A stretch of 40,415 nucleotides of DNA from Acidimicrobiia bacterium (GTDB taxonomy: Bacteria > Actinomycetota > Acidimicrobiia > IMCC26256 > JAGPDB01): assembly GCA_035329685.1 (NCBI GenBank), contig DAOLGI010000001.1:33824-74238 (forward strand), written 5' to 3'. Every line of letters begins with the position of its first letter. The first letter of the stretch is position 1. The notes beneath the pieces were generated by a model that saw nothing but the letters and a program-made list of their open reading frames with translations, was not told the origin of the DNA and searched no databases. The position numbers and the translations under genes were made by a program. Positions 199 to 38,741 of this stretch are shown here, piece by piece.

Positions 199-240
199 AG
201 GTCTGTCCGCACTTTCCGTGAGGACAGACCTTACGTTTTT
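199..240 (+). terminator. Intrinsic-terminator-like hairpin between secY and adk
   Basis: 10-bp stem AGGTCTGTCC (199-208) / GGACAGACCT (222-231) with a 13-nt loop, then TACGTTTTT. Confidence 0.5.
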
Positions 241-242
241 GG

Positions 243-307
243 ATCGTGTAACAACTGAACGGCCTGCTGATGCGTCGTCGCGTGCGGGGAGGGTCGCACC
301 TGCTTGG
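243..307 (-). repeat. Rep-C half unit (right arm, C-tract, linker and tail)
   Basis: The minus strand reads CCAAGCAGGTGCGACCCTCCCC-GCACGCGACGACGCAT-CAGCAGGCCGTTCAGTTGTTACACGAT. Confidence 0.75.
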
Positions 308-313
308 AATAAT

Positions 314-479
314 CTCGTGACAACTGAACGAACTGCCAACACGCCGATTTTTGTGGGGAGGGTCCGACTAGTCATCCTGAGTTTACGAAGGATCTCAACT
401 TCGTTGACCACTTCGATTTTGAGATCCTTCGGCTAAAGCCTCAGGACGACTGTGTCGCTTTTCCAAGATCAGACCCTAA
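314..479 (-). repeat. Rep-C full unit whose hairpin apex is interrupted by a Rep-A copy
   Basis: The minus strand reads TTAGGGTCTGATCTTGGAAAAGCGAC..[Rep-A 450-371]..TAGTCGGACCCTCCCC-ACAAAAATCGGCGTGTTG-GCAGTTCGTTCAGTTGTCACGAG. Confidence 0.8.
371..450. repeat. Rep-A two-armed copy nested in the apex of a Rep-C hairpin
   Basis: GTCATCCTGAG..GAAGGATCTCAA / TTGAGATCCTTC..CTCAGGACGAC form an 80-nt inverted repeat. Confidence 0.85.
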
Positions 480-551
480 CTGTGCACAGTTGTTGCCGGG
501 TTGGTGCGACATAGTGGGCAATCAGCCCCTATAGTCTTTGTCTAATTCACT

Positions 552-5244: not shown

Positions 5245-5247
5245 GTC

Positions 5248-5283: not shown

Positions 5284-5303
5284 GATAAATCGGAGTCACA
5301 AGA

Positions 5304-5382
5304 CTCGATACAAGTGAACGAACTGCTGCGAACACGTTGCTTTTGGGGAGGGCCGCACCTGCACAGCAGGAACGACCCTATA
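5304..5382 (-). repeat. Rep-C minimal unit (5-nt apex) just upstream of truA
   Basis: The minus strand reads TATAGGGTCGTTCCTG-CTGTG-CAGGTGCGGCCCTCCCC-AAAAGCAACGTGTTC-GCAGCAGTTCGTTCACTTGTATCGAG. Confidence 0.85.
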
Positions 5383-5393
5383 GTAGATAACTC

Positions 5394-7730: not shown

Positions 7731-8129
7731 GTGGCAAACGCAAAACCATTGATTCAAGCAACTGGACGTCGAAAGAGTGCAGTGGCTCGTGTTCGGGTCC
7801 GTCCCGGTAAGGGCACGATCACTGTGAACAAAACTCCCATCGAGCAGTACCTAAATAGTGATCTCCTTGTGCGCCATGCGACAGAAGCTCTTCGTGTATC
7901 TAACACGAATGAGGTATATGACGTTGATGCAACAGTTCACGGTGGCGGAGTTGCTGGTCAAGCGGGTGCTCTTCGGTTGGGAATTGCTCGTGCAGTTGTG
8001 GGACTCGATCTCGATCAACGTGGTGCACTCAAGAGTGCAGGTCTGCTTTCTCGCGATGCGCGTGAAGTTGAGCGTAAGAAATATGGTTTGAAGAAAGCTC
8101 GTAAAGCTTCTCAATTCTCTAAACGCTAG
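7731..8129 (+). CDS. rpsI: 30S ribosomal protein S9
   Basis: GTG start, 132 aa, containing GRRKSAVARVRVRPG and ending KKARKASQFSKR. Confidence 0.95.
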   Translation: MANAKPLIQATGRRKSAVARVRVRPGKGTITVNKTPIEQYLNSDLLVRHATEALRVSNTNEVYDVDATVHGGGVAGQAGALRLGIARAVVGLDLDQRGALKSAGLLSRDAREVERKKYGLKKARKASQFSKR

Positions 8130-8130
8130 T

Positions 8131-8226
8131 GTTAACGAACTGGTAGCTCCATGGGGAGGGTCCGGCCGTGGAAAGGTTGTGACCTTTGTAGGTCACTTTT
8201 CCTTACTTTCCAAGGCCAGACCCTAA
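8131..8226 (-). repeat. Rep-C unit with shortened tail, between rpsI and glmM
   Basis: The minus strand reads TTAGGGTCTGGCCTTGGAAAG..GTGACCTACAAAGGTCAC..CTTTCCACGGCCGGACCCTCCCC-ATGGAGCTAC-CAGTTCGTTAAC. Confidence 0.8.
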
Positions 8227-8262
8227 CTTCGCTGGTCCTCCCGTGACGTTGAAAGGTTTTTT

Positions 8263-13337: not shown

Positions 13338-13406
13338 TTTTATTGTCGAACCGCAGGCAAAGCCCGACGGTTCTCGCGGTCGCTCCTCCGATCGCTCCCT
13401 GTGATT
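13338..13406 (+). repeat. Rep-B copy 5 nt after the acpS stop
   Basis: TTTATTGTCGAACCGCAGGCAAAGCCCGACGGTTCTCGCGGTCGCTCCTCCGATCGCTCCCTGTGATT. Confidence 0.9.
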
Positions 13407-13460
13407 GCAGGGCCAGGCTCTGGTTGTGGAAAACTTCTTTGCAGGGTCAGACCCTGCAAA
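13407..13460 (+). repeat. Rep-C-related hairpin without tail; its right arm is a perfect 23-nt palindrome
   Basis: GCAGGGCCAGGCTCTGG-TTGTGGAAAACTTCTTT-GCAGGGTCAGACCCTGC. TTTGCAGGGTCAGACCCTGCAAA (13438-13460) is self-complementary. Confidence 0.7.
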
Positions 13461-16730: not shown

Positions 16731-17472
16731 CGTTTTAACCATCGATTCTTCGACGAATGCTGTTGCGGTGGCCTGTGGAAGTTCAGATCGTGATGCTTCG
16801 AGTCGATGTGTCGAACAGCGTGCATTTCATTCGGAAAACATTCTTGTTGTGATCGACGAGATTCTCCAGGAACGATCGCTGACCATGAAGGATATAGATG
16901 TGATCGGCGTGGGAGTCGGGCCTGGTCTCTTTACGGGTTTGCGCGTTGGGATTTCTGCCGCTCACGCTTTTGCTCACACCCTCGATATACCTTTGGTATA
17001 TTTTTCTTCCCTCGAACTCACCGCCATATCGTTTGCAGGGTCCCACCCTGTCTGTGGAAAAGTAGTGGTGGCACGCGACGCACGCAGGCATGAACTTTAT
17101 AGTGCAACATACGAATCTGCACTTCTTCCGACTACGCAATGTACGATTGACACAACGACATTCTCGACACGACTTAATCGTATACATGAAGAAGCCTTGC
17201 TTACCCCCGAACAGTTTGTTGAAGCAGTCAATGTGAGTGAAGATACACAAGTATTTCTGGACGATATATCACGCTATGAAGAGTTTTCGCAGTTCACAGA
17301 AACATCTCGCTCGCATATTCAACCAGCGAGTATTGATGCTCGATACATGCTCGATCACGTCATCGAAGCAGCACAGGCAGGGATTGTCGCCGATGTCTTT
17401 GCTCCTTCTGCGCTCTATATTCGAAAATCGGATGCAGAATTATCCTGGAACATTCAGGAGTCTGTTTCATGA
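16723..17472 (+). CDS. tsaB: tRNA t6A37 biosynthesis protein TsaB
   Basis: Starts MSNVLTIDSSTNAVAVA and contains GPGLFTGLRVG. ATG 16723 overlaps the tsaE stop. Confidence 0.85.
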   Translation: MSNVLTIDSSTNAVAVACGSSDRDASSRCVEQRAFHSENILVVIDEILQERSLTMKDIDVIGVGVGPGLFTGLRVGISAAHAFAHTLDIPLVYFSSLELTAISFAGSHPVCGKVVVARDARRHELYSATYESALLPTTQCTIDTTTFSTRLNRIHEEALLTPEQFVEAVNVSEDTQVFLDDISRYEEFSQFTETSRSHIQPASIDARYMLDHVIEAAQAGIVADVFAPSALYIRKSDAELSWNIQESVS

Positions 17473-19616: not shown

Positions 19617-19680
19617 TTCACGTCTTCTGTCAACTTTGCCCGTACGGGCGTGGCGGCGAATAGCAGAGGATCTTCTGTCT

Positions 19681-19731
19681 GTCATCCTGAGTGCAACGAA
19701 GGATCTAGATTCCTCGCAGGCTCGGAATGAC
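19681..19731 (+). repeat. Rep-A complete two-armed copy (51 nt)
   Basis: GTCATCCTGAG-TGCAAC-GAAGGATC-TA-GATTCCTC-GCAGG-CTCGGAATGAC. Confidence 0.9.
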
Positions 19732-21734: not shown

Positions 21735-23281
21735 CCATAAGCGCACATGTACCCGAACAAATTGTCCTTGTAGTTGATTTTGGCGCTCAATACGCCCAAC
21801 TGATTGCGCGCCGCGTGCGCGAAGCACATGTATATTCGGAAATCGTTTCACGAAAAATTACAGCGCAAGATGTTCGAGCAAAAAAGCCTGCTGCCATCAT
21901 CCTGTCTGGCGGACCAAAGTCGGTTCATGAAGATGGCGCACCGCTACTTGATCAAGAAATCTATGATCTCGGTATTCCTATCTTGGGAATTTGTTACGGC
22001 GCACAACTGATTGCAAAACAATTAGGTGGGGAAGTAGCAAAAACAGGATCAGGCGAATACGGTCGCACAGAATTATCCGTACTCAATTCTTCACTACTTC
22101 TTCACGATCTCGATGCACAGCACACGGTGTGGATGAGTCACTTCGATACAATCACAAAAGCCCCCGAAGGCTTTCTTGTAAGTGGCACAACGTCAAATAC
22201 GCCCGCTGCTGTTATGGAAAATGCAGAGGCAAGTATTTTCGGGGTGCAATTTCACCCTGAAGTAAAACACACTCCCAATGGTCAAGAAATTCTCAAACGT
22301 TTTCTTTACGAGGGCGCACACTGTGCACCTACGTGGACGAATTCCACCATCATTGACGATTCTGTTGCTGCCATACAAGAACAAGTTGGATCAAGCAAAG
22401 TTATTTGTGCGCTTTCAGGTGGTGTTGATTCTTCCGTGGCCGCAGCTCTCATGCATAAGGCCGTAGGAGATCAACTTGTATGTGTGTACGTGGACACGGG
22501 CATGATGCGTCACGGAGAATCTGAGCAGGTCGAAAAAACTTTTCGCGATCAATTCAAGATAGATCTCATTCATGTTAAGGCGCAAGACCGATTCCTCGAA
22601 CAACTCAAAGGTGTCACCGAACCAGAAGAAAAACGCAAGATTATCGGTGAAACATTTATCCGTATCTTCGAAGAAGTAGAAGACGATATTCAAGACGCAA
22701 AGTTTCTTGTGCAAGGAACGCTGTATCCTGACGTAATTGAATCAGGTAATGATGATGCTTCAACAATTAAAAGTCATCACAATGTCGGCGGTCTTCCTGA
22801 AGACATGAAGTTTGAACTCGTTGAACCTTTGCGCAACTTGTTTAAAGATGAGGTTCGTGCAATTGGAGCTGAGCTTGGTTTGCCTGAAGATATCGTATGG
22901 CGTCAACCTTTCCCTGGCCCCGGCTTGGCTGTGCGTATCGTTGGTGACATCACGCTTGAGCGTCTCGAAATTGTGCGTGCTGCAGACTTTATTGTGGTGG
23001 AGGAAATCCGTCGTGCAGGATTGTATCGAGAGATCTGGCAGAGCTTCGCTGTATTACCCACTATCAAGAGTGTGGGTGTGCAAGGAGACGAACGAACATA
23101 TGCTTATCCCATTATTATTCGTGCAGTGACCTCTGATGATGCCATGACCGCAGATTTTGCTCGCATAGATTTCGATATCCTCGAAAAAATCGCGAATCGT
23201 ATTATTAATGAAGTTCCTGGTGTGAACCGCGTGGCATACGACGTTACCTCGAAGCCCCCCGGCACTATCGAGTGGGAATAA
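21731..23281 (+). CDS. guaA: GMP synthase (glutamine-hydrolysing)
   Basis: 516 aa with GATase motif [11 protein letters not shown]-PPase SGGVDSSV and C-terminus PPGTIEWE. Confidence 0.95.
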
Positions 23282-23297
23282 TCCGCTGTTCTTGCAG

Positions 23298-23424
23298 TTA
23301 GGGTTGTCCCTTGGAAAAACGGAGAAATACAGAGAATCTCACATGAGATTTCTCATACGTTTTCCAAGGGGCGGCCCTCCCCTTAAAACAACTAAACAGC
23401 AGCAGTTCGTTCAGTTGTACCGAG
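23298..23424 (+). repeat. Rep-C full unit after guaA
   Basis: TTAGGGTTGTCCCTTGGAAAAACG..apex..CGTTTTCCAAGGGGCGGCCCTCCCC-TTAAAACAACTAAAC-AGCAGCAGTTCGTTCAGTTGTACCGAG. Confidence 0.9.
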
Positions 23425-23506
23425 TCTTATAGCCTAAACCTGCGTGGACATCCCATCTCCAACTACACTGCAATGCATATATTCACACAGTGAAAGAGGT
23501 TGTCCC

Positions 23507-24094
23507 ATGACACGAAACCGATTATTTGTTACCTGTGCCTGCGCACTTGTTCTTGTTCTCTCTTTGGGCGCATGTGGTTCAGATTCTAAGAAGGAATCTT
23601 CTGACAGTAAGTCCGAGGAACGCAAGTCAGTGAGCTCTTCGAGTGGTAAGAGTGATTTTGTGAAAGATGTTGCAAAAGTATGTCAAGGAATTGATCGAGA
23701 AGTCTTCGACGAATTGTCTAATTCAGATATTGCTGGCGATCCTGACGCATTCCAAGAAGCATTGAAGAACGGTGAAGATGAGCTCGATAATGTGATTTCT
23801 GATCTTGAAGATATCGATCCTCCATCAAAGTTTTCCGATGACTGGGATACATTCCTCGATGATTTTTCTGCAATGAGGGACGCGTATCCACAACTTGGTG
23901 AAGGGATGGCATCACTCACTCGACTCGCTACAGATTCTCAATCGACAGACCCAGCAACTGCGCAGGCTGCACAAACGCAAATGATTGAAGTTCAAGCTGA
24001 TTTGCAAGAATTAGTTGAAGACTTATCTCAACGTGGAGAAGAAATAGCAGCTATTGCAGATCGCCTTGGCTTAGAAGATTGTAATTTAGATTAG
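23507..24094 (+). CDS. Acidic lipoprotein of unknown function
   Basis: ATG 23507 follows an AAAGAGG Shine-Dalgarno sequence. The signal peptide MTRNRLFVTCACALVLVLSLGAC carries a lipobox (LGAC), followed by a Ser/Asp/Glu-rich mature part. Confidence 0.65.
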   Translation: MTRNRLFVTCACALVLVLSLGACGSDSKKESSDSKSEERKSVSSSSGKSDFVKDVAKVCQGIDREVFDELSNSDIAGDPDAFQEALKNGEDELDNVISDLEDIDPPSKFSDDWDTFLDDFSAMRDAYPQLGEGMASLTRLATDSQSTDPATAQAAQTQMIEVQADLQELVEDLSQRGEEIAAIADRLGLEDCNLD

Positions 24095-24255
24095 TTCCAT
24101 CTGAGCGTCACTTGGAAACAAACCAGGTTTGCACCCAGATGGCGCTGTTCTAGCTACATAACGGCCTGAAACCCTTGTATAAAGAGCTGCATTGGCGGGT
24201 GTTGCCTCCTGGGATCTATACTTTTACACTAAATGTGTAAAGGTTCCGTTCTGCG

Positions 24256-24519
24256 ATGATTAAATTTCCTACTTCGAATAGTTGGTGGATTTTTGATGAT
24301 ACACATTTACGCTTTAGAAAAATTCCTCGTGATATGAATCCTGATGCATTCGTACTTGATGGCGATTGGCAGAAATATGCAGATCTTGAGATTGACGCAG
24401 ATAATTCCGCATTCACAGTATTTTTAGATGAAGAAAAGACTCGTCTTTTGCGAGGCTATATCGAGTCCGCTGATTCTGAACAGGACCTGGACAAGGATAT
24501 TGTCGCATCTGACGCCTAA
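24256..24519 (+). CDS. Small hypothetical protein (87 aa)
   Basis: Clean ORF 9 nt upstream of pcrA. It is Trp-rich at the N-terminus (SNSWWIFDDTHLRFRK) with an acidic tail. I recognise no motif. Confidence 0.45.
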   Translation: MIKFPTSNSWWIFDDTHLRFRKIPRDMNPDAFVLDGDWQKYADLEIDADNSAFTVFLDEEKTRLLRGYIESADSEQDLDKDIVASDA

Positions 24520-24528
24520 ATTATTGGC

Positions 24529-27081
24529 GTGACTTTTCCCGCAAACGTTTTCGCAGCAACAGTACTGCCCGATATTGACGACACCTCAGATAAGCGCAAC
24601 CCGCTCGACCACATTCTCGATTCCCTGAACGATTCTCAACGCGAAGCCGTGACGTACGGTAATGGGCCCCTTCTTGTAGTTGCCGGTGCCGGTTCGGGAA
24701 AAACGAGAGTGCTGACTCGACGCATTGCCTATTTGATTGCGCAGGGCGGTGTTTCACCATACGAGATTCTTGCTATTACCTTTACGAATAAAGCTGCTGC
24801 GGAAATGGTGGAGCGCGTAGCACAGGTTGTAGGTCCGATTGCCTCCCGAATGTGGGTTTCTACCTTTCACTCAGCGTGCGCGCGAATTCTCCGAATGGAT
24901 GGAGAAGCCGTCGGGATTAAAAGTGGGTTCTCTATTTATGATGTGTCAGATTCCACGCGTCTTGTTGACTATGCCCGGCGCGATATTGGGGCTGACTCCA
25001 AGCGTTTCACAGCCAAAACTTTGCAGCGGACGATTTCTTCCATGAAAAATGAACTGATAACACCAGCTCAGGCTTTAGAACGTGCCGAGATGGATACTCA
25101 AGTCACCATTGCTAAAGTCTATGCAGAATACGAGCAACGTCTTCGTGCGGCGAATGCCGCCGATTTCGATGATCTACTTGTGAAGTGTGTGGAATTACTC
25201 CGCGATCACGATCACGCACGAGATAAATATCAAAATCGATTTTCGCATGTTCTCGTCGATGAATTTCAAGATACCAACATGGCACAGTCTGAACTTGTGA
25301 ATCTCTTATCTCAGAAAAACCGCAATGTCACAGTTGTCGGTGATGCTGATCAGTCCATCTATAAATTTCGTGGTGCAGATCATCTCAATATGGAACGATT
25401 TGAGGAAAGCTACCCCGATACTCACGTAGTGATTCTGAATACGAATTATCGTTCGACGGAGAACATTTTGGCTGCGGCAAATGCTGTTATATCGAACAAT
25501 TCTTCACGACATAAAAAAGAATTGATCTCCGACAAAGGTGAAGGTGAACCGATCACGGTTTACTATGCAAATAGTGATCGCAACGAAGCCCAACATGTGG
25601 CAGATACCATCGGAAAATTGATGATGACACAATCGCTCGACACAATTGCTGTTTTTTATCGCACGAATGCGCAATCACGACTGATCGAAGAGCGTCTCAT
25701 TCGTCTTGGCATTTCATACCGTATTATCGGCGGGACGAAGTTTTTTGAACGGCGTGAAATCAAAGATGCGATTGCCTACTTGCGTGTCTTTGCTAACTCT
25801 TCCGACGAAGCTTCGTGGCGTCGCATAATTAATGAACCCAAACGGGGTATCGGTGATACTTCAATTTCCAAAATTGCGGCCTTTGCGCGAATGCACGACA
25901 TCTCCTTCCGGCAGGCCTTAGAGCGGGTCTACGAAATAGGCTTGTCAAAGAAGGCTTCTCAAGCCGCATTAGGTCTCTGTTCATTGTTTGACGTCGCAGC
26001 CAATGGGGAGCGAATCAATGTTGCTGACATTGTGGACCATCTTCTCCATGCATCGGGCTATATCAAGATGCTTGAAGAAGAAAACTCGTTTGAATCCCAA
26101 GGCCGGTTGGAGAACCTCATTGAACTTGTTTCTCAAGCGCGAGAGTTTGATGTTGCTATTGATGTGAAGTGGAAAGATCAAAGAGAAAATGTTGCACAAG
26201 TATTTGATGGGCAGGCAGATTCCGTTGCACGTGTTTTTGCCGAAGAAGACGAACGCTTGCTTGATCCTGAATCACCGCATGATCGCGTCGGAGCATTTCT
26301 TGAAGCGGTTTCTCTGTTGGCAGAGTCAGATCAAGCCAATGCGAATGATGAAGCAGTGACCTTGATGACTCTTCATACGGCCAAAGGACTTGAATATTCC
26401 ACTGTGTTCATTGTGGGGCTCGAAGAAGGATTGTTTCCTCATGAACGCTCTATGGGCGATGTGTCTGAGCTCGAAGAAGAACGACGACTTTGCTATGTCG
26501 GTATTACCCGAGCAAAAGATCGACTGTTTTTAAGCTGTGCCCTGTCACGAATGACCTATGCCACCCCCGATTACTTTTCACCCAGCCGATTTTTGAAAGA
26601 AATACCAGCGGAACTAGTAAAGGCAATCCAGGATAAAGATTCCCCCAGCGAATTCATGAGTTCTCGTCAGCCTTCGGGCGCGACCTCGTCGTCGCGTTCT
26701 CGATATTCGCAGGTATATGACGATGTGATCTTTGATGATATTGATCCCGATGATGAACTGGGTGCCGGACGAATAATTGGGGGAAGTTCGGGTTTTGCGA
26801 CATCAGCACGTGTACGATCTCGTATTTGGGGTGATGTGAAAGATGAGGATGAGGACTCTGAAGCGCTGAGCTCAGTTGATGAAGTAAATGAATTAGAAAG
26901 TTCATTTGATGTCACGCCTTTTGTGTTGGGTGTTCATGTTCATCATGATAAATATGGCCAGGGGACTGTCACTAACGTAGAAGTCCATCGAAATGGCGAT
27001 ACTGCGATTACGGTGAGTTTTCCGAGTGATAAGACCAGAACATTCATGGCTTCACTCGATCCTCCGTTGACGCTTATCTGA
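24529..27081 (+). CDS. pcrA: ATP-dependent DNA helicase PcrA/UvrD (SF1A)
   Basis: 850 aa containing AGAGSGKT, VDEFQDTN, VGDADQSIYKFRGA, TLHTAKGLE and CYVGITRAK, followed by an acidic linker and a C-terminal Tudor-like domain (HHDKYGQGTV). Confidence 0.9.
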   Translation: MTFPANVFAATVLPDIDDTSDKRNPLDHILDSLNDSQREAVTYGNGPLLVVAGAGSGKTRVLTRRIAYLIAQGGVSPYEILAITFTNKAAAEMVERVAQVVGPIASRMWVSTFHSACARILRMDGEAVGIKSGFSIYDVSDSTRLVDYARRDIGADSKRFTAKTLQRTISSMKNELITPAQALERAEMDTQVTIAKVYAEYEQRLRAANAADFDDLLVKCVELLRDHDHARDKYQNRFSHVLVDEFQDTNMAQSELVNLLSQKNRNVTVVGDADQSIYKFRGADHLNMERFEESYPDTHVVILNTNYRSTENILAAANAVISNNSSRHKKELISDKGEGEPITVYYANSDRNEAQHVADTIGKLMMTQSLDTIAVFYRTNAQSRLIEERLIRLGISYRIIGGTKFFERREIKDAIAYLRVFANSSDEASWRRIINEPKRGIGDTSISKIAAFARMHDISFRQALERVYEIGLSKKASQAALGLCSLFDVAANGERINVADIVDHLLHASGYIKMLEEENSFESQGRLENLIELVSQAREFDVAIDVKWKDQRENVAQVFDGQADSVARVFAEEDERLLDPESPHDRVGAFLEAVSLLAESDQANANDEAVTLMTLHTAKGLEYSTVFIVGLEEGLFPHERSMGDVSELEEERRLCYVGITRAKDRLFLSCALSRMTYATPDYFSPSRFLKEIPAELVKAIQDKDSPSEFMSSRQPSGATSSSRSRYSQVYDDVIFDDIDPDDELGAGRIIGGSSGFATSARVRSRIWGDVKDEDEDSEALSSVDEVNELESSFDVTPFVLGVHVHHDKYGQGTVTNVEVHRNGDTAITVSFPSDKTRTFMASLDPPLTLI

Positions 27082-27098
27082 TTCTGATTTCTTCAACT

Positions 27099-27153
27099 GT
27101 CATCCTGAGAGCACATACGTCATCCTGAGTGCAGCAAAGGATCTTTAGCTGCA
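27099..27153 (+). repeat. Rep-A copy with duplicated GTCATCCTGAG head
   Basis: GTCATCCTGAGAGCACATACGTCATCCTGAGTGCAGCAAAGGATCTTTAGCTGCA, which includes a TGCAGC/GCTGCA stem. Confidence 0.85.
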
Positions 27154-27220
27154 ACACTGGGTGAAAACTTTTCATCTGATCGATTTGAATGAGCAACACT
27201 GGCCTATTAGAATGTCTCGA

Positions 27221-28309
27221 ATGACCGTTTTAGGAAGAGATCACCCAGAAGATGTAAGAACATGGATGGAACTTCAACATGGTCAATGGGTAACGCCAAC
27301 CGAAATTCAGCGAGCTATTCTCAATCACTGGGGAATCACTGATGTCGTTATCGGTGAGAGAATGGCAACAGGTGAAGCAACTGAAGTGTACCGCGTGCAC
27401 AAAAGGCCTACCGAAGGCCAGGATGACGGACTTTTAGGCTATCTCAGGATTGCTAATCATGGTGGTCTGAACGATGCGGAAATTATATTAATGGAGGCAT
27501 GCCGTGCTGCAGGCTTGCCCAGTGTGGAATTATTACATTCTTCTCCATATCAATTACGCAACGGTCAAATATCGTCTGATCTGGGCGCAACTTTCCTTGC
27601 TCCAGCGGTAGGTCTAAACCTTGCTGAGGCTATTGAGCAAGGTACCTACGACATTGAAGTAATAAATACGGCGTTGCGTAATGCGGGCGCGTTGCTAGCT
27701 CACATTCATAGTTTACCTGATGTTAATGTCGGTGTTGCTCAAGCGGTCGAGCGGGGTTTGGCGAGAAGTCAGAGAGATGATTTTAGTCGTGACTTAGCTT
27801 TTCTTCGAAGGACGATGCAGTACATTCCAGAAGCAACTCCTCTTTTACAACACATTAAACAAGCAGCACGTGATCATAAAGCAGGACTTGCGGATATACA
27901 GAGCAAATATCCACGCGCATTGGTGCATGCCGACTTTGATCCGAAGCATCTTTTCTTTGATCCATTGACTGGCGATATTACATCTCTTATCGATTTTGGC
28001 GGTGCACACGTAAATGTTGCGCATGCCGATTTCTTTCATTGGAAAACATTTTCTCCTATGACGTACGAGGTTTTTCTTGATGCTTATCTCGATGAGAGAT
28101 TTGGCTTTGACTTAATTGATGCGCAAGAATTCGAAGCTGAAATTGACTTGGCATATGCGGCTTGTAATTTAAGGTCAGCATGTGTACGGATGGATCAGCT
28201 GCTTGTAAATGAAGCAGTAGGCCATTTACATAATTGTGCAAGCGCTTGTGATCGTATTGCGCCCAGGGTAAAGGTACCCACAGCATCTGAAGGTGCCCTG
28301 TCCTATTAA
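27221..28309 (+). CDS. APH/choline-kinase-family phosphotransferase-like protein, paralog 1
   Basis: Contains a Gly-rich ATGEATEVYRV, the catalytic-loop-like HADFDPKH and IDFGGAH. I chose the start at the ATG shared with paralog 2; the ORF remains open upstream to GTG 27161. Confidence 0.6.
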   Translation: MTVLGRDHPEDVRTWMELQHGQWVTPTEIQRAILNHWGITDVVIGERMATGEATEVYRVHKRPTEGQDDGLLGYLRIANHGGLNDAEIILMEACRAAGLPSVELLHSSPYQLRNGQISSDLGATFLAPAVGLNLAEAIEQGTYDIEVINTALRNAGALLAHIHSLPDVNVGVAQAVERGLARSQRDDFSRDLAFLRRTMQYIPEATPLLQHIKQAARDHKAGLADIQSKYPRALVHADFDPKHLFFDPLTGDITSLIDFGGAHVNVAHADFFHWKTFSPMTYEVFLDAYLDERFGFDLIDAQEFEAEIDLAYAACNLRSACVRMDQLLVNEAVGHLHNCASACDRIAPRVKVPTASEGALSY

Positions 28310-28370
28310 TATGATTCAAGTTACCATTACTTTTTGACTAAAAAGGCCAGATGTCGATAGAATGTCTTGA

Positions 28371-29447
28371 ATGACCGTTTTAGGAAGAGACCATGAAGAT
28401 GATATTGCTCTTTTTTTCAGAAGCCAACATCGTATATGGACAACTCAAAAAGGTGCACGTAAGAAGATTCTCGCAAGTTGGGGGATAAAAAACTTTTCTA
28501 TAGGGAAACGAATTGCTACCGGTGAAGCGAGCGAGGTTTACCCTGTTAACGATAAATCAACTAAAAAATTGTTGGGTTATTTACGAATTGCTCATCGGGG
28601 AGCAGGGAGTCGTAACGGATGCGAAGTCACTCTTATGAAGGCTTGCGACGAGGCAGGTTTGCCCAGTGTGCGATTATTGCATTCTGCGGATTTGTCACGG
28701 GCAAATGGTAAATCCCCTATTGAAGGAGCAATAACCTTTGTAGCCCCTGCACGTGGAATGAATCTTCAAGAGGCCATTTTGATGCCGGGTATAGCTCAAG
28801 GGCTCATTCGAAATGCAGTTCATAATTCAGGCATTTTTCTCGCAGAGATGCATTTGCTCAGAGACCGCGATCCTGCAGTGGAAAAAATGGTAAGTAAATT
28901 TTCATATGCAGAAGCCTCAACTCAACTGGGTAAATTTTTTAATAAAGCAAGAAAAACGTTACGGCGTTTAGATGAGACTAAAGAACAATTCGCAGCTATC
29001 GACGACGCTTTCCTCCAGGTATGGGAAGGGCTTGCACGTCTTTATCAAGAATATCCTCTTGTTTTAATACATTCCGATCTTGAACCGAAACATGTTTTCT
29101 TTAATATCAATCGGGGTGAGCTTCTAAATGTGATTGATTTTGGTAGCGCGCATGTCAATATTCCACACTTCGATTTGCTCAACTGGAAAACTTTTTCGCC
29201 GGAAACATTCGACGAATTTGCCCAATCATATCTCGATGCCCGATTTGGAAGTGACTACGAGAGAGCATCGCACTTCATGGAGGAACTTGATTTTGCGGAG
29301 ACTGTGTGGCAATTAGATTGGGCGCTCTATCGCATGGAGCACCTCCTCGTTGCTGAAGCATGCGGGCATGTGCAATTGGCGGGCGAAGCATGTCGCCGCA
29401 TTATTGCAAGAGATTTACAACCACATCGAGATTTGGGACATCCGTAA
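28371..29447 (+). CDS. APH/choline-kinase-family phosphotransferase-like protein, paralog 2
   Basis: 358 aa, collinear with paralog 1 (ATGEASEVYPV, LLGYLRIA, HSDLEPKH, IDFGSAH). Confidence 0.6.
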   Translation: MTVLGRDHEDDIALFFRSQHRIWTTQKGARKKILASWGIKNFSIGKRIATGEASEVYPVNDKSTKKLLGYLRIAHRGAGSRNGCEVTLMKACDEAGLPSVRLLHSADLSRANGKSPIEGAITFVAPARGMNLQEAILMPGIAQGLIRNAVHNSGIFLAEMHLLRDRDPAVEKMVSKFSYAEASTQLGKFFNKARKTLRRLDETKEQFAAIDDAFLQVWEGLARLYQEYPLVLIHSDLEPKHVFFNINRGELLNVIDFGSAHVNIPHFDLLNWKTFSPETFDEFAQSYLDARFGSDYERASHFMEELDFAETVWQLDWALYRMEHLLVAEACGHVQLAGEACRRIIARDLQPHRDLGHP

Positions 29448-29543
29448 AGAGTATTTCTGTACTGATTTTCGATTCTTTCTTCCCGCTCGAGTAGCGTAAG
29501 GACTCGCATTTCCTAATAAATATCGTTTCGTACGAGGAGCACA

Positions 29544-30698
29544 ATGGATCTTTTGGAATATCAAGGTAAGGAGCTTTTTGCTACCTTTGACATCCCCGTT
29601 AGCGCTGGTAAAGCGGTCACGGATGTTGATAGTGCAGTAGTAGCGGCTAGCGAAGTGGGATATCCCGTTGTCGTTAAGGCCCAGGTACTTGTTGGTGGCC
29701 GCGGAAAAGCGGGCGGTGTCAAACTTGCTACCAATGAAGACGAATGCCGCGAACACGCCACAAACATTTTGGGTCTCGATATCAAAGGCCATATTGTCAA
29801 AACAATCTGGATCGAACATGCGAGCGATATCGAAAAAGAATATTACGCAAGTTTCACACTTGATCGTGCAGCAAAAAAGCATCTCGGTATGCTCTCGGCA
29901 GAGGGTGGAGTCGAAATAGAGATAATCGCAGAAGAGAATCCTGATGCAATTGCAAAGATTTGGATCGACCCTTTCATTGGATTAACCAGAGAGCAATGCA
30001 CAGTATGGGTCAACGATGCCAACCTAGATGAAGAAGCACGAGCTGGCTCCGTCGACATCTTGATGAATCTTTACAGGGCATACGTTGAAGGCGATACTGA
30101 CCTGGCTGAAATCAATCCATTGATTCTGACACCAGAAGGTAAGGTTCATGCACTGGATGCCAAAGTGACGCTTGATGAAAATGCTGAGTTCCGTCATCCT
30201 GAATGGGCAGCTTATGAAGGAACGCAAGAACTCGATTCGCGCGAACTCATGGCAAAGGAAAAAGGTCTTAATTACATTGGTCTCGATGGAGAAATCGGAA
30301 TCATTGGCAACGGTGCGGGTCTCGTGATGTCGACTCTCGATATTGTCAACCAAGTGGGCGGTCGTCCAGCGAACTTTTTGGATGTGGGTGGTGGCGCCGG
30401 TGCTGACCTTCTCGCGAATGCAATTGAAGTCGTCAACAGTGATGAAAAAGTAAAAGCAATTTTCTTGAACATCTTTGGTGGAATTACAAAATGTGATGAT
30501 GTTGCCAACGGGGTTGTTGAAGCTACATCACGCGTGAATCTCACTTCTCCCATTGTTGTTCGTTTAGATGGAACAAACGTAGAAGAAGGTCGCGCAATCT
30601 TGGCTGCAAATCCCAATCCAATGGTGGTATCAGCTCCGACCATGCTCGACGCTGCGCGCAAAGCTGTTGAATTATCGGTTAAGGCCGAGGAAGGTTAG
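29544..30698 (+). CDS. sucC: Succinyl-CoA synthetase beta subunit
   Basis: 384 aa starting MDLLEYQGKELF, with an ATP-grasp domain, and containing GNGAGLVMSTLD and NIFGGITKCD. Confidence 0.95.
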   Translation: MDLLEYQGKELFATFDIPVSAGKAVTDVDSAVVAASEVGYPVVVKAQVLVGGRGKAGGVKLATNEDECREHATNILGLDIKGHIVKTIWIEHASDIEKEYYASFTLDRAAKKHLGMLSAEGGVEIEIIAEENPDAIAKIWIDPFIGLTREQCTVWVNDANLDEEARAGSVDILMNLYRAYVEGDTDLAEINPLILTPEGKVHALDAKVTLDENAEFRHPEWAAYEGTQELDSRELMAKEKGLNYIGLDGEIGIIGNGAGLVMSTLDIVNQVGGRPANFLDVGGGAGADLLANAIEVVNSDEKVKAIFLNIFGGITKCDDVANGVVEATSRVNLTSPIVVRLDGTNVEEGRAILAANPNPMVVSAPTMLDAARKAVELSVKAEEG

Positions 30699-30700
30699 CG

Positions 30701-31591
30701 ATGAGTATTTTTGTTGATAAAGACACAAAAGTTATTTACCAAGGACTCACCGGTTCGCAAGGGCACTTCCATGGAATGCGTAATAAGGAATACGGAACGC
30801 AGGTTGTTGCAGGAACAAACCCTAAAAAAGCAGGTACGGATGTTGAAGGTGTTCCTGTATATGGAACAGTTGCCGAAGCGAAAGCAGCAACAGGCGCTAC
30901 CGCGAGCTGTATTTTTATCCCTGCTCCTGGAGTTAAAGGGGCGGTGCTCGAAGCAGCAGAAGCAGGAATTGAATTCATTGTCGTTATCACGGAAGGTGTT
31001 CCGAGTCACGACGAAGCCCAGTTTTACAACCAAGTAAAAACAGAACATCCGAACACGTTTATTCTTGGTCCTAACTGTCCTGGAATCATTACGCCGGGTG
31101 AATGTAACATAGGAATTATTCCTGGACAGATTGCACTCGCGGGTGGACCCGTCGGTGTTGTTTCTCGTTCCGGAACTCTGACCTACCAAGCCGTTCATGA
31201 ACTCTCACAACGAGGTATTGGTCAAACCACGTGTGTGGGTATTGGGGGGGACCCTGTTCCCGGCGTGACACACATTGATTGTTTGGAGCGATTTGAAGCT
31301 GACCCAGATACCAAGGCTGTTATCTTGATTGGTGAAATTGGTGGTTCTGCTGAAGAAGATGCAGCGCAATTCATTGCCAACAAAATGACGAAACCTGTTG
31401 TTGCTTACATTGCGGGTGTTACAGCACCTGCGGGAAAGAAAATGGGCCATGCCGGCGCAATCATTTCTGGAGGTAAGGGTACAGCACAAGGCAAGATGGA
31501 TGCGCTTACGGCTGCTGGAGCAACCGTAGTGATGAACCCAACGGAAATTGGTGCTGCAATGGCAGACGTGATCGCAGGCTTTACACCATAG
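30701..31591 (+). CDS. sucD: Succinyl-CoA synthetase alpha subunit
   Basis: 296 aa containing [17 protein letters not shown] and the phosphohistidine motif MGHAGAI. The stop TAG forms the first bases of a Rep-C copy. Confidence 0.95.
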
Positions 31592-31688
31592 GGTTGGACC
31601 TTGGAAACGAGATTTTGTGCGACGAGCTGTAGTCCAAGGTCCGGCCCTCCCGGGAAGCACCGAAAGTAGCAGCAGTTCGTTCAGTCAT
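31589..31688 (+). repeat. Rep-C full unit starting at the sucD stop codon
   Basis: TAGGGTTGGACCTTGGA..apex..TCCAAGGTCCGGCCCTCCCG-GGAAGCACCGAAAGT-AGCAGCAGTTCGTTCAGTCAT, with a 15-bp stem 31591-31605 / 31633-31647. Confidence 0.9.
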
Positions 31689-31740
31689 CGCCGATATTTT
31701 GGTGGCGATTGTCTAAAGTTGTACTTCATATTGTCGAAAG

Positions 31741-32121
31741 ATGCCTATGAACGATACGCCTGACATTTCAGATGCCCAGGAGCAAGAAGACGGAGCCACG
31801 CCACCTCCTAGGGCAATGCCCATAGACCCTGAGGTCGGAGCGTATTATTCCAATCTCCAAAACACTGGAGTTTCTGCCCAAAAAACTGATGGGTTTGCTA
31901 TTACTTCGCTTGTCTTCGGACTTATTCCGTGTGGACTTATTTCCGGGCTATGTGCAGTCATTTTTGGGGTAAAGGCTCAGCGACGAATAAAAAAAAGCAA
32001 CGGAGCTACCAAAGGAGAGGGTTTAGCTCGTGCCGGGATCATACTTGGTTCGATACAACTTGTTGCCATCTTTATCTTCCTTATTGTTGATATGATCGAT
32101 TTACTGAACACTGGATTGTGA
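31741..32121 (+). CDS. DUF4190-like small membrane protein
   Basis: 126 aa with an acidic/Pro N-terminus and two TM segments flanking a basic loop (KAQRRIKKSNGATKG). It is a paralog of the next gene and shares the G(A/T)YYSN motif. Confidence 0.6.
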   Translation: MPMNDTPDISDAQEQEDGATPPPRAMPIDPEVGAYYSNLQNTGVSAQKTDGFAITSLVFGLIPCGLISGLCAVIFGVKAQRRIKKSNGATKGEGLARAGIILGSIQLVAIFIFLIVDMIDLLNTGL

Positions 32122-32124
32122 GAT

Positions 32125-32625
32125 ATGACAGACGACAACGAAACTCCGAACGAAAGTAACGAACTGCCTTCGGCTGAATCGTCCGATGCACCTCATATTC
32201 CGCCGCCGAGCCCGTATGCTCAGCCGACTCAACCGCCTCCACCTCCTCCGCCTGTGGAAGTATCGCCGCCACCTCCACCGCCGCCGCCCATGGAACCAGT
32301 TGCCCCCCAGATGGGAACGTATTATTCCAATCAACAGGGCTATGTGGTTTCTGGCCCCAAGAACGATCCTTTTGCAGTTACCTCGATGGTCGTGGGAATC
32401 GTGGGTGTGCCGCTGTCTTGTTGTTGCACGCCTTTATCTTTCGTTTTGGGGATCATTGCAACAGTTTTTGGTGCACTATCCATGTCGAAAATTAAGAAGA
32501 TGCAAGGTCAACTGGGCGGACAAGGAATGGCAGTTGCAGGACTGGTTTTGGGAATTTGTGTAATTGGGCTATCGATTGCCTCCTTTGCATTCGGTGTTGT
32601 CAACTACACCGCAGACCTGGGCTAG
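32125..32625 (+). CDS. DUF4190-like membrane protein with poly-proline N-terminus
   Basis: 166 aa with PPPPPPPVEVSPPPPPPPP, then the same two-TM module (SMSKIKKMQGQLGGQG loop). Confidence 0.6.
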   Translation: MTDDNETPNESNELPSAESSDAPHIPPPSPYAQPTQPPPPPPPVEVSPPPPPPPPMEPVAPQMGTYYSNQQGYVVSGPKNDPFAVTSMVVGIVGVPLSCCCTPLSFVLGIIATVFGALSMSKIKKMQGQLGGQGMAVAGLVLGICVIGLSIASFAFGVVNYTADLG

Positions 32626-32685
32626 CGTCACATTTACTTCTGCATTATTTCGCATTTTCACTGCGAAATGTGAGAGCATGAATAC

Positions 32686-33291
32686 TTGAATTCACCTCAT
32701 GCGTCCGGCTCTGCAGTAAATATCGCAGTACTCGTTTCCGGCTCGGGAACGAATCTTCAAGCCATCATCGATGATGGAATTACTGTTGCCCTTGTGCTGT
32801 GCGATCGTCCTGACATTCCTTCAATTGATCGGGCGAACAAAGCGGGAATTGAATTCTGTGTTGTGGATCGATCACTCTACAAGGGTAGACGCGAAGAGTT
32901 TACCCAAGCTGTTGTTGGTGAACTTGAAGCTCGCAATATTGACCTTGTGGTGATGGCGGGTTTCATGACAATTTTGACCCCTATTCTTTTTGAAAAATTT
33001 GAGGGATGCGTACTTAATATTCATCCGAGTTTGTTGCCTGCGTTTACGGGTACACATGGTCGAGGGACAATGACTGCTACTTTGGAATCTGGTGTCAAGG
33101 TAACGGGTGTTACTGTTCATATTGCTACCGCAGATGTGGACGCAGGGCCTATTCTCGCGCAGGAGTCTGTCGAAGTATTAGAAAATGATGATGAAGATTC
33201 ACTGCACGAGCGAATACAAAAAGTTGAGCATCGAATATATCCTCAAACAATTCGCCAATTTTGCGCCCAACATTTTAATAATCAAGAATAA
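32686..33291 (+). CDS. purN: Phosphoribosylglycinamide formyltransferase
   Basis: Contains VLVSGSGTNLQAII, NIHPSLLPAF and TVH..T..VDAGPI. The TTG start is the only in-frame option. Confidence 0.9.
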   Translation: MNSPHASGSAVNIAVLVSGSGTNLQAIIDDGITVALVLCDRPDIPSIDRANKAGIEFCVVDRSLYKGRREEFTQAVVGELEARNIDLVVMAGFMTILTPILFEKFEGCVLNIHPSLLPAFTGTHGRGTMTATLESGVKVTGVTVHIATADVDAGPILAQESVEVLENDDEDSLHERIQKVEHRIYPQTIRQFCAQHFNNQE

Positions 33292-33305
33292 CGAAAGGCC
33301 CCGTA

Positions 33306-34829
33306 ATGACCTTCCCTGTAAAGCGAGCACTTATATCCTGTTTTGATAAAACAGGAGTTGTCGATTTTGCGCAAAGTCTGCATAGCTTGGGTATCGATAT
33401 CGTTTCCTCTGGAGGAACGGCAGTTGTAATCGCCGAAGCGGGCATTCCTGTAACCACCGTCGAAGACGTCACGGGCATGCCAGAAATGTTGGATCATCGC
33501 GTTGTGACTTTGCATCCAAAAATTCACGGCGGAATTCTGGCCGATCTCGATAAAGAAAACCATCACAAAGACATGGAAAAGTTTGGCATTGAAGCTTTCG
33601 GGCTCGTTGTTGTGAACCTGTATCCCTTTGTTGAAAAACCAGGAATAGAAACCATCGATATTGGTGGCCCAGCAATGATTCGTGCAGCGGCAAAAAATAA
33701 TGCCTTTGTCGGTGTGGTAACGAATCCTCGCCAGTATGCTGACGTCCTCGATGATCTCAAGAACAACAATAACGAATTAAGCGACGCACTTCGTTGGCGT
33801 TTAGCGCGTGAAGCATACGTGCTCACTGCTTCGTTTGATGCGGCCATTGTTGAATGGATGAATAACCAAGATTCCGGCAAGTCTGGCGAATTGCCAGAAG
33901 AGATCATTATCTCACTGAAGAAGCGTACCGATCTTCGCTATGGAGAAAATCCTCATCAGCAAGCTGCGCTTTATGATTATGTCAATCACGAGACATCATG
34001 GCCGCAGTCCATGGTGGTTCATCAGGGTAAAGAGCTCAGTTACATTAACTATCTTGATCTGCAATCTTCGTGGTCATTGGTGAACCAATTTGATGGTCCT
34101 TCCTGTGTGATCGTCAAGCACGCGAATCCTTGTGGGGTAGCGAGTGCTGGCAATATATTTGATGCTTACGGTCGAGCATTTGCATGTGATGATGTCTCTG
34201 CCTTTGGTGGAGTAGTGGCGATTAATGGTGAGATTGATGAAGCAACAGCGAACGCTGTTACCGATGCGTTTACTGAAGTCGTTATTGCTTCCAGTATCTC
34301 TGATGCTGCAATGGAACTTTTTTCTCAGAAGAAAAACCTCCGTGTTATTACCGCTGACAAGCCCAATAAATTGGGATGGGATATTAAACACATCGATGGA
34401 GCATTTCTTGCACAAGACGCCGATGACTTTACTGATAATGAATCCGCATGGAAAGTAGTCACCACACGCGAACCTACTGATGCGGAAATGGCTGAAGCAA
34501 AGTTTGCTTGGACTGTGTGCGCAGGAACATCCAGCAATGCAATTGTATTGACAAATAATTGTCAAGCAGTGGGGATTGGCGCAGGTCAGCAAAGTCGTGT
34601 TCATGCAGCTGAAATTGCAGCGAACAAGGCGGGGGATCGAGCCCAGGGCGGTGCATGTGCATCCGATGCTTTCTTTCCTTTTCGCGACGGAATTGATGCA
34701 GCAGTCGCTACCGGTGTGACTGTCGTGATTCAGCCCGGAGGATCTATGCGCGACGACGAAGTCATCGAAGCGGCTAACGAACACGGCATTGCCATGATCT
34801 TTACCGGGACCCGCCACTTCCGACATTAG
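33306..34829 (+). CDS. purH: Bifunctional AICAR transformylase / IMP cyclohydrolase
   Basis: 507 aa containing [32 protein letters not shown] and C-terminus FTGTRHFRH. Confidence 0.95.
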
Positions 34830-34837
34830 ACCTGAAT

Positions 34838-34938
34838 TTAGGGTTGTTCCTGGTGCCAGGAGCGTAGCGACTGAGCAGCAGGTGCGACCCTCCCCATAAG
34901 CAACGCATCTACAGCAGTTCGTTCAGTTGTATCGCGAC
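34838..34938 (+). repeat. Rep-C full unit after purH
   Basis: TTAGGGTTGTTCCTG..apex..CAGGTGCGACCCTCCCC-ATAAGCAACGCATCT-ACAGCAGTTCGTTCAGTTGTATCGCGAC. Confidence 0.9.
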
Positions 34939-34940
34939 TC

Positions 34941-35007
34941 GTGGTCCGCAGGTACGGCCCTCCCCTAAATCAACTGTGTTGCAGCAGAACGTTCAGTTGT
35001 TTCGAGG
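34941..35007 (+). repeat. Rep-C half unit in tandem with the preceding full unit
   Basis: GTGGTCCGCAGGTACGGCCCTCCCC-TAAATCAACTGTGTT-GCAGCAGAACGTTCAGTTGTTTCGAGG. Confidence 0.8.
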
Positions 35008-35017
35008 TTTTCCATTT

Positions 35018-35072
35018 GTCATCCTGAGTGCAAAGAAGGATCGAGATTCCTCGGCCAACGCCTCGGAATGAC
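35018..35072 (+). repeat. Rep-A complete two-armed copy (55 nt)
   Basis: GTCATCCTGAG-TGCAAA-GAAGGATC-GA-GATTCCTC-GGCCAACGC-CTCGGAATGAC. Confidence 0.9.
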
Positions 35073-38534: not shown

Positions 38535-38603
38535 GTTTATTGTCGAACCGCGGGCATAGCCCGACGGTTCTCGCGGTCGCTCCTCCGGTCGCTCCCTGTG
38601 ATT
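38535..38603 (+). repeat. Rep-B copy directly after the icd stop
   Basis: GTTTATTGTCGAACCGCGGGCATAGCCCGACGGTTCTCGCGGTCGCTCCTCCGGTCGCTCCCTGTGATT. Confidence 0.9.
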
Positions 38604-38724
38604 CGGTCTGACCTTGGAAAAACGGAGAAAACAGAGAATCTCACAAGAGATTTCTTCTACGTTTTCCAAGGTCAGACCCTCCCCAAACTAACGATGTAGC
38701 AGCAGTTCGTTCAGTTGTATCGAG
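38604..38724 (+). repeat. Rep-C full unit fused to a Rep-B copy after icd
   Basis: CGGTCTGACCTTGGAAAAACG..apex..CGTTTTCCAAGGTCAGACCCTCCCC-AAACTAACGATGT-AGCAGCAGTTCGTTCAGTTGTATCGAG. The apex is about 90% identical to 23322-23357. Confidence 0.9.
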
Positions 38725-38741
38725 CGGTGTGGCCCAAGGCG

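Follow-up and report, generated by a model that had tools for sequence, protein, structure and literature searches.

Rep-C is a previously undescribed family of repeats with an unusual bipartite architecture, and it lies within what bacterial genomes are known to contain. We analyzed it in a 40,415-nucleotide stretch of DNA from an Acidimicrobiia bacterium (contig DAOLGI010000001.1, positions 33,824 to 74,238; hereafter, the window) and in related genomes. The family is most likely a mobile element rather than an RNA gene; it is probably a non-autonomous element, similar to repetitive extragenic palindromic (REP) sequences and miniature inverted-repeat transposable elements (MITEs), that has colonized intergenic spacers across one small uncultured lineage of Actinomycetota. 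We read it as a mobile repeat because its copies have been gained and lost between close relatives, occur in either orientation, show nesting, include truncated and armless derivatives, are restricted to spacers, and have multiplied in a lineage-specific burst. Approximately 290 kb of lineage sequence was examined overall, which is a small and non-random sample. It includes sequence from two metagenome-assembled genomes, CAYMMG01 (GCA_964391505; DNA ~87 to 93% identical to the window; PurH 97% identical) and CAZFAO01 (GCA_964516875; PurH 88% identical), and syntenic regions of 14 to 21 kb from more distant relatives (L052 to L056; PurH 73 to 88%).

Rep-C units in the window and their anatomy

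A covariance model (CM), R1, was built from an alignment (A1) of 27 Rep-C copies from the window and one related assembly. Run on the window with filters off, R1 identified nine units at E<1e-6, seven with a hairpin and two that are armless and stand in tandem with another unit (Table 1). The 20-mer of the tail has 8 matches at ≤3 mismatches in the window, versus 0.01 expected, and all 8 occurrences of the octamer CCCTCCCC fall inside Rep-C units, versus 0.48 expected. The preliminary description of this DNA had proposed a family of about ten copies. The repeat is real, at nine units, and two half units that it had placed near 243-307 and 34941-35007 correspond to the armless units found by R1. 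A copy that it had listed at 38604 is also a member, although with a mutated arm base. The segment at 13407-13460, which it had taken for a tail-less copy, had no R1 match at E<=10 and belongs instead to a family of palindromes, AGGGTC[A/G]GACCCT.

From its pattern of conservation, the unit is modular and combines a structure-constrained hairpin, a length-constrained spacer, and a sequence-constrained tail. The focal copy, for example, reads TT-AGGGTTGTCCCTTGGAAAAACG...CGTTTTCCAAGGGGCGGCCCT-CCCC-TTAAAACAACTAAACA-GCAGCAGTTCGTTCAGTTGT-ACCGAG. The basal helix of the hairpin is 19 bp long, with 93.9% of cells paired and 11 of the 19 pairs changed on both sides. None of 500 shuffles reached the observed level of pairing, no slid register came near it, and RNAalifold independently returned the same helix and left the tail unpaired. 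Above this helix, the apex ranges in size from a 3-nt loop to ~45 nt, and whole hairpins measure 32 to 80 nt. Long forms carry an apical stem of 5 to 9 bp in which 6 of 7 pairs are changed on both sides; these apical stem-loops were picked with RNAfold, which makes their pairing percentage somewhat circular. The apical loop, ACA(A/G/T), is invariant over 12 distinct sequences and is directly visible on differing stems.

The C-tract, CCCTCCCC, is nearly invariant. The linker that follows was originally thought to be 10 to 17 nt long and different in every copy; across 33 units, it is instead 14 to 17 nt long (15 nt in 23 of them), A-rich (45%), and semi-conserved, with a mean pairwise identity of 47%; partial conservation is limited to AA and AAC. 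AAC at alignment columns 99 to 101 is conserved, as is CGTT at columns 118 to 121. The tail, GCAGCAGTTCGTTCAGTTGT, was correctly described as near-invariant (93% pairwise identity among 23 non-orthologous copies). It is not the end of the unit, however, since homology continues more weakly for ~12 nt (aTCGaG-tcTTgtg). The tail, ~20 to 26 nt of invariant sequence, holds two direct CAGTT repeats 9 nt apart and is predicted to be unstructured and single-stranded. On the left, a weak (t)GnAGT precedes TAGGGT, with AGT in ~11 of 25 copies and a flank identity of 42%. Homology among paralogues spans from ~3 to 6 nt before TAGGGT to ~12 nt beyond the tail.

In at least seven arrays, a second unit starts at the right arm, without a left arm, ~12 to 20 nt past the first tail. 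No consistent pairing partner was found for the right arm of these second units, and pairing with the preceding post-tail sequence, one candidate that we considered, gave no consistent fold. In the one array that was compared with an outgroup, the second unit of the tandem is a lineage-specific addition. The modular build with armless units in tandem agrees with the earlier likening of Rep-C to the mosaic organization of bacterial interspersed mosaic elements (BIMEs). One related locus (L026, 5084-5212) carries a full Rep-C with an extra inverted tail at 5059-5078, 11 nt to the left of the hairpin and matching at 19 of 20 bases; this symmetric arrangement is the sole case among ~30 copies.

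Strand polarity of the hairpin

The hairpin is under selection for pairing on the tail-bearing strand only. Non-Watson-Crick pairs in the helix, read on that strand, comprise 66 G.T and 9 A.C pairs, and in 25 of 26 copies the tail-bearing (top) strand forms the more stable hairpin, whether RNA or DNA energy parameters are used. The ratio of G.T to A.C is 23/1 in copies that are sense to their operon and 21/0 in antisense copies. Since the bias is the same in both, the polarity is a property of the element and not of host transcription. The G.T pairs sit at few positions that are inherited within approximately five subfamilies, and the independent events are few, roughly 6 to 8.

Genomic position and orientation

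All copies are situated between housekeeping genes. Among 32 copies scored with crude open reading frame (ORF) calls, none was convincingly intragenic. Within co-directional gene pairs, 12 were sense and 11 antisense; 5 more lay between convergent genes and 3 between divergent genes. The distance to the nearest coding sequence (CDS) boundary had a median of 14 nt at the hairpin end versus 86.5 nt at the tail end (Wilcoxon p=0.007, on the same crude ORF calls), which bears out the original observation that the left-arm end lies close to genes. This asymmetry is partly due to an accumulation of second units, and of elements of another hairpin family, Rep-A, on the tail side. In sense copies, the hairpin starts 0 to 18 nt past the stop codon, and in at least three copies, including that at sucD in the window, the upstream gene terminates at the TAG of TAGGGT.

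Orientation is clustered along the window. All 4 copies at 237-8231 are on the minus strand, and all 5 at 23293-38732 are on the plus strand. GC skew is uniformly non-negative and gene orientation is unchanged throughout; therefore, no replication switch explains this clustering. We also considered the change of orientation as a signal of a replication origin and rejected it on the same two grounds, a GC skew without a flip and a constant gene orientation.

Gain, loss, and possible exchange of copies between relatives

As read from comparisons of orthologous spacers, Rep-C copies have been gained and lost between close relatives. The spacer between sucD and a DUF4190 gene holds a copy in the window and none in CAYMMG01, CAZFAO01, or L053. 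The TAG stop codon of sucD in the window (31589-31591, in the gene end region 31580-31591) comes from the left arm of Rep-C, which has replaced the native stop, and the gene is two codons longer than sucD of CAYMMG01. The right junction lies inside the tail (..GTTCAGT/CATCGCC) and adjoins the native sequence CAGTTATCAC that is present in CAZFAO01. The purH-folD spacer has received different, independent insertions in two genomes: two Rep-C units and a Rep-A in the window, and in CAYMMG01 a Rep-C hairpin that lacks the tail, together with a D1-like repeat and one other hairpin. It measures only 36 nt in CAZFAO01 and 10 nt in L053. The guaA-downstream copy is common to the window and CAYMMG01 only, the corresponding spacer being short and free of Rep-C in CAZFAO01 and L053. 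Conversely, a copy between adk and infA is present in CAYMMG01 and absent from the window.

Other sites have changed in content. At secY-adk, there are two units in the window and CAYMMG01 and one in CAZFAO01. The armless second unit has a linker and arm type unrelated to those of the first, so it must have been added rather than duplicated locally. The Rep-A that was first noted as nested in the window copy here (306-484) is absent from the orthologues in CAYMMG01 and CAZFAO01, which upholds that assignment. At rplQ-truA, CAYMMG01 has a copy with the same flanks and tail (25/26) and a different hairpin subfamily and linker, for which the simplest explanation would be that the conserved blocks anchored an ectopic conversion, or a replacement. 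The rpsI-glmM orthologue in CAYMMG01 has entirely lost its tail, and at the site downstream of icd, CAYMMG01 holds an unrelated palindromic hairpin.

The guaA-downstream spacer itself (23282-23507, Rep-C plus ~85 nt beyond) is ~96 to 97% identical to that of CAYMMG01, against an average of 87% over the 5 kb around it. This excess points either to a spacer under constraint or to sequence recently exchanged between the two lineages.

Distribution and database searches

The complete unit appears to be confined to a genus-level clade, as judged from the genomes searched, with an older hairpin-base core. We draw this limit because distant relatives show hairpin-only palindromes, no full copy, and no tail. 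A scan for exact tails in one genome per GTDB species gave 19 matches in CAYMMG01 and 2 in CAZFAO01, the only GTDB genomes in which tails stood in a Rep-C context; copies outside the window, which the preliminary description had named beforehand as a thing to look for, thus occur in both. Tail matches in Microcoleus/Lyngbya and Terriglobia were rejected as unrelated, having an apparently coding context and no hairpin, with ~1 chance match expected in 596 Gb. A scan of JGI metagenomes (241 million records) with the pattern CCCTCCCC-N12-22-CAGTTCGTTCAG gave chance matches only, since 20 of 20 lacked the hairpin and the rest of the tail. Searches of viral contigs, plasmids, phages, and sequences in the literature found no Rep-C. 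Rfam returned no matches at gathering thresholds over the whole window and none at E<=10 on isolated copies, the best sub-threshold match being 17 bits against a 90-bit cutoff, in keeping with the earlier statement that Rep-C fits no known RNA family.

In the syntenic regions L052 to L056, R1 found no full copy, only hairpin-only palindromes of the type TAGGGTC.GACCCTA. Such versions lie in the sucC-sucD spacer of distant relatives (L054, 7763-7819; L055, 7765-7842), and the sucD spacer of L055 holds the palindrome without a full Rep-C. The presence of hairpin-only versions with the same core in distant relatives suggests that the hairpin module may be older than the tail module. A tail profile run with nhmmer on L052 to L056 gave nothing below E=1.8. 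We therefore dismissed the idea that the tail is a pre-existing host motif and regard a similarity in the guaA spacer of L053 as chance.

Comparison with known repeat families

In functional terms, Rep-C is most like REP/REPIN/BIME and BOX mosaics, and we do not place it in a named family because it lacks defining features of each family tested. It shares with the REP/REPIN/BIME elements of Proteobacteria, which are mobilized by REP-associated tyrosine transposases (RAYTs; Y1 HUH enzymes), an abundance of strictly extragenic copies (9 units per 40 kb) in either orientation, an imperfect hairpin that compensatory changes preserve and that pairs strand-specifically (G.T), units arranged as mosaics, and long persistence at orthologous sites. 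REP sequences are, however, defined by GT[A/G]G ahead of a 20- to 40-nt palindrome, whereas the Rep-C arm base is (T)TAGGGT and only 3 of 27 copies have GTAGGGT. REPs typically form inverted doublets; Rep-C arrays are direct tandems of armless modules, with the one inverted tail pair in L026. Rep-C further differs in its invariant 20-nt tail 19 nt from the hairpin and its actinobacterial host, and the ~290 kb of its lineage examined yielded no RAYT gene. BOX elements of Streptococcus pneumoniae (boxA-boxB(n)-boxC) are also modular and intergenic, with one module in variable tandem number and end modules that pair into a hairpin as in Rep-C. There is no sequence similarity between the two, the repeated module of Rep-C lies outside the hairpin and carries the right arm, and the host phylum differs.

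The palindrome-associated transposable elements (PATEs) of the IS200/IS605 group resemble Rep-C in their top-strand-specific hairpin, the lack of a visible target-site duplication, and conserved sequence next to the hairpin in which a cleavage site could lie. A PATE carries a subterminal hairpin at each end, whereas Rep-C has one hairpin and a tail predicted to be unstructured. They insert 3' of a fixed tetra- or pentanucleotide in an orientation set by replication, whereas Rep-C is without a clear target motif and occurs in both orientations (4 minus, 5 plus) in one window of uniform skew. Membership in either the IS200/IS605 PATEs or the REP/RAYT system, as the preliminary description had entertained, is thus not supported, given the single hairpin, the unconserved GTAG, the lack of a Y1 transposase in the ~290 kb, and the mixed orientation.

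MITEs with terminal inverted repeats (TIRs), such as Correia, Nezha, and the Tn3-derived TIMEs, are likewise small and intergenic, with nested insertions and inverted-repeat-like arms of 20 to 25 bp around a variable core. The earlier conclusion that Rep-C is not a plain TIR-type MITE holds, given the conserved tail outside the inverted repeat. In Rep-C, ~45 to 60 nt (C-tract, linker, and tail) are conserved outside the inverted repeat, which is not terminal on the right, and the right terminus is not the reverse complement of the left. No target-site duplication was seen, and G.T wobbles, unnecessary in duplex TIRs, maintain the pairing. An intrinsic terminator is a G+C-rich hairpin with a U/T run directly after it, whereas CCCC and then an A-rich linker come after the Rep-C hairpin, and neither terminators nor promoter-like sites were called in the five copies within 22500-40415. 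Finally, integron attC sites (RYYYAAC...GTTRRRY) lie at cassette boundaries, whereas Rep-C is dispersed between housekeeping genes; its left GTTAGGG has a purine at position 7, and there is no inverse core at CCCTCCCC.

Proposed mobilization of Rep-C

A trans-acting enzyme may recognize the folded top strand, as single-stranded DNA or possibly RNA, and copy or move the unit. Recognition would involve two contacts at a fixed distance, one with the hairpin and its C-tract and one with the tail. This is suggested by the combination of a structured hairpin, a fixed-length spacer of free sequence, and a sequence-fixed single-stranded tail. HUH-type enzymes (Y1 transposases/RAYTs, IS91-type enzymes, and relaxases) recognize hairpin-plus-flank substrates, and for this reason an HUH/Y1-type enzyme would be the most natural candidate mobilizer. 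Ectopic gene conversion anchored in the conserved blocks may then swap apex and linker among copies. A more specific proposal is that Rep-C is the footprint of an undescribed structure-guided mobilization system in Actinomycetota. Here, a folded strand would be read via two contacts 15 nt apart (the ACAR-loop hairpin with its C-tract, and the 20-nt tail), and units would be added preferentially at CDS boundaries and directly 3' of tails by a mechanism distinct from RAYT/REP, IS200/IS605, and TIR transposition. We consider this proposal, on balance, unlikely.

Several results weigh against Rep-C being a mobile element. The ~290 kb examined, which cannot speak for the rest of the genome, contained no transposase or HUH gene, and tblastn with IS200 TnpA and YafM probes had no match below E=2. 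The sucD filled/empty pair, a single clean site of low power, shows no target-site duplication, and no clean target motif is apparent at this one clean polymorphic site. Several copies have also stayed in place from one species to another. Three species share all 17 of 17 tail bases at secY-adk despite divergence of the linker. This pattern favors some constraint in situ and could mean a host function, or it could come from repeated replacement by family members. Lastly, minus and plus copies lie in one 40-kb stretch of uniform GC skew, and this mixed orientation argues against a strictly lagging-strand-directed mechanism of the IS200/IS605 type.

Work on small interspersed repeats has centered on Proteobacteria and Firmicutes, and such repeats are poorly known in Actinomycetota and uncultured lineages. 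The tight spacers of close relatives (10 to 70 nt), set against those of two sister genomes filled by at least three repeat families, form a natural before/after series for the invasion of essential operons, even to the donation of stop codons. The ACAR loop, C-tract, 15-nt spacer, and 20-nt tail offer handles for finding the mobilizing enzyme. If Rep-C is only a decaying MITE family, its value is limited to annotation, where masking would keep it from being called as a gene, small RNA, or terminator.

Alternative explanations

The hairpins of sense copies begin 0 to 18 nt after stop codons, as would be expected if Rep-C were a host-exapted cis-acting transcript element, i.e., a stabilizer in 3' untranslated regions or between cistrons, a processing site, or an attenuator, like E. 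coli REP/BIME sequences, kept by selection for its effect on neighboring genes. Compensatory changes that preserve hairpin pairing, the retention of tail and C-tract at orthologous sites while the linker diverges, and the ~96 to 97% identity of the guaA-downstream spacer between genomes averaging 87% point in the same direction. Nevertheless, half of the copies are antisense to the operon with their top-strand G.T polarity unchanged, and tail retention is equal whether copies are sense or antisense. A U-tract is missing, no terminator was called, close relatives lack the element at the same spacers, and some orthologues have lost or truncated tails with no obvious consequence. We regard a host-exapted cis-acting role as decidedly unlikely.

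It is very unlikely that Rep-C acts as duplex DNA, either as an array of sites for a nucleoid or regulatory protein or as an outward-facing mobile promoter in which the linker AAC and tail CGTT resemble the -35 and -10 elements recognized by an extracytoplasmic function (ECF) sigma factor. Two conserved blocks at a fixed 15-nt distance are what bipartite protein sites typically show, the AAC and CGTT columns are conserved, and the tail contains two direct CAGTT repeats; however, strand asymmetry of the hairpin would be meaningless for duplex DNA. As for a promoter, the AAC-N15-CGTT spacer is shorter than the usual 16 to 17 nt of ECF promoters, the strongly conserved GCAGCAGTT between the motifs is unexpected in a promoter spacer, and antisense copies would fire into the 3' ends of essential genes. 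An independently transcribed family of small RNA genes, with the CCCUCCCC tract as an anti-Shine-Dalgarno-like seed and the hairpin as a stabilizing or protein-binding module, could explain why the G.U-compatible hairpin is more stable as top-strand RNA, why a C-rich single-stranded tract follows it, and why the apical loop is conserved. Yet the left flank is unconserved (42% identity) and usually ≤14 nt from a CDS, leaving no shared promoter; no terminator follows the tail, Rfam has no match, and truncated, armless, and nested copies behave as decaying DNA repeats. With sense and antisense copies at 12/11 and no promoter- or terminator-like site called, the multicopy small RNA gene raised in the preliminary description is extremely unlikely.

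Several narrower candidates were also rejected. A small reverse-strand ORF (GGAGG, TTG, to the TAA of ACCCTAA) is intact in subfamily b only and has an early stop in subfamily a. Adenine-specific linker variation, as in diversity-generating retroelements, does not fit, since all bases vary and no reverse transcriptase was seen. The arm start GGGTCTGA is reminiscent of the Tn3 inverted repeat, and TTAGGG of telomere repeats; both likenesses are coincidences at the level of 8-mers with no supporting feature. A Pfam scan of 30 ORFs that adjoin copies or lie in the window returned housekeeping families or none, and no transposase family. A window-specific ORF of 278 amino acids (36063-36899) was considered as a partner; it has no Pfam match and by eye resembles a 2OG-Fe(II)/PhyH-type oxygenase rather than a transposase.

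Other features and neighboring loci

Table 1. Rep-C units in the window, parts of the focal copy, and one excluded segment
Feature	Position	Strand	Evidence
Focal full copy	23298..23432 (R1 match 23293-23432)	+	CM 121.4 bits, E 8e-33; fold -40.6 kcal/mol
Focal copy, TT	23298-23299	+	Sequence
Focal copy, hairpin AGGGT..ACCCT	23300-23378	+	Sequence
Focal copy, ACAT apical loop	23341-23344	+	Sequence
Focal copy, CCCTCCCC	23375-23382	+	Sequence
Focal copy, 16-nt linker	23383-23398	+	Sequence
Focal copy, tail GCAGCAGTTCGTTCAGTTGT	23399-23418	+	Sequence
Focal copy, post-tail ACCGAGTCTTATAG	23419-23432	+	Sequence
Full copy at sucD	31589..31688 (R1 match 31583-31702)	+	CM 77.7 bits; tail ends early, after GTTCAGT
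Full copy directly after purH stop; unit 1 of two-unit array	34838..34944 (R1 match 34833-34944)	+	CM 87.3 bits
Unit 2 of purH tandem array, armless (only right arm, CCCTCCCC, linker, and tail), period ~70 nt	34947..35014	+	CM 47.4 bits, E 1e-11
Full copy downstream of icd, adjoining D1 repeat	38596..38732	+	CM 102.9 bits; arm base mutated, TTCGGT for TAGGGT
rplQ-truA copy with short hairpin (3-nt loop), antisense to both genes	5296..5386	-	CM 81.5 bits
Copy between rpsI and glmM, tail truncated (CCAGTTCGTTAA)	8118..8231	-	CM 76.8 bits
Copy between secY and adk, Rep-A (~371-450) nested in apex	306..484 (R1 match 311-477)	-	CM 42-54 bits
Armless second unit beside 306-484 copy	237..308	-	CM 32.1 bits, E 2e-7; three-way alignment
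Non-member; separate palindrome family, core AGGGTCAGACCCT at 13443-13455	13407..13460	+	No R1 match at E<=10, filters off

Three further repeats occur in the window. The Rep-A hairpin family (GTCATCCTGAG...CGAAGGATC) is found at 133-173, 371-450, 1686-1726, 19673-19716, 27114-27143, 35010-35053, and ~38745-38790, often 5 to 40 nt 3' of a Rep-C tail. The 71-nt D1 repeat (87 to 93% identical) lies at 5112-5182, 13339-13409, and 38536-38606, with a partial copy at 5183-5250; its copies start within a few nucleotides of the stop codons of rplQ, an ACPS-family gene, and icd. The palindrome AGGGTC[A/G]GACCCT (5986-5998, 6485-6497, 13443-13455, and 17037-17049; 5 matches versus 0.05 expected) shares its core with the arm base of Rep-C.

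The window has a G+C content of 47% and contains only housekeeping genes: adk, infA, rpsM-K-D, rpoA, rplQ, truA, rplM, rpsI, glmM, alr, tsaEBD, guaB, guaA, pcrA, sucCD, purN, purH, folD, and icd. This gene order is associated with actinobacteria, and the RpoA of the window is nearest to the Mycobacterium and Streptomyces enzymes. CAYMMG01 and CAZFAO01 (L003 to L028, L051, and L052) are publicly titled "uncultured Burkholderiales bacterium." This label looks wrong because their RpoA, CrgA, WXG100, and DUF4190 proteins and the gene order of the ribosomal operon indicate Actinomycetota.

Gene content also varies between the relatives. Two tandem APH-family (phosphotransferase) paralogues (27161-28309 and 28371-29447) have duplicated upstream sequence (27208-27253 and 28358-28403); CAYMMG01 has one APH-family gene at this locus, and CAZFAO01 and L053 have none. 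The 278-amino-acid ORF is absent at its position in CAYMMG01, and the folD-icd interval is variable in all relatives. Between adk and infA, CAYMMG01 and CAZFAO01 carry an ORF of ~820 amino acids with a signal-peptide-like N terminus (L011, 3222-5687; L018, 1333-3786), in place of which the window has 570 bp of unrelated non-coding sequence.

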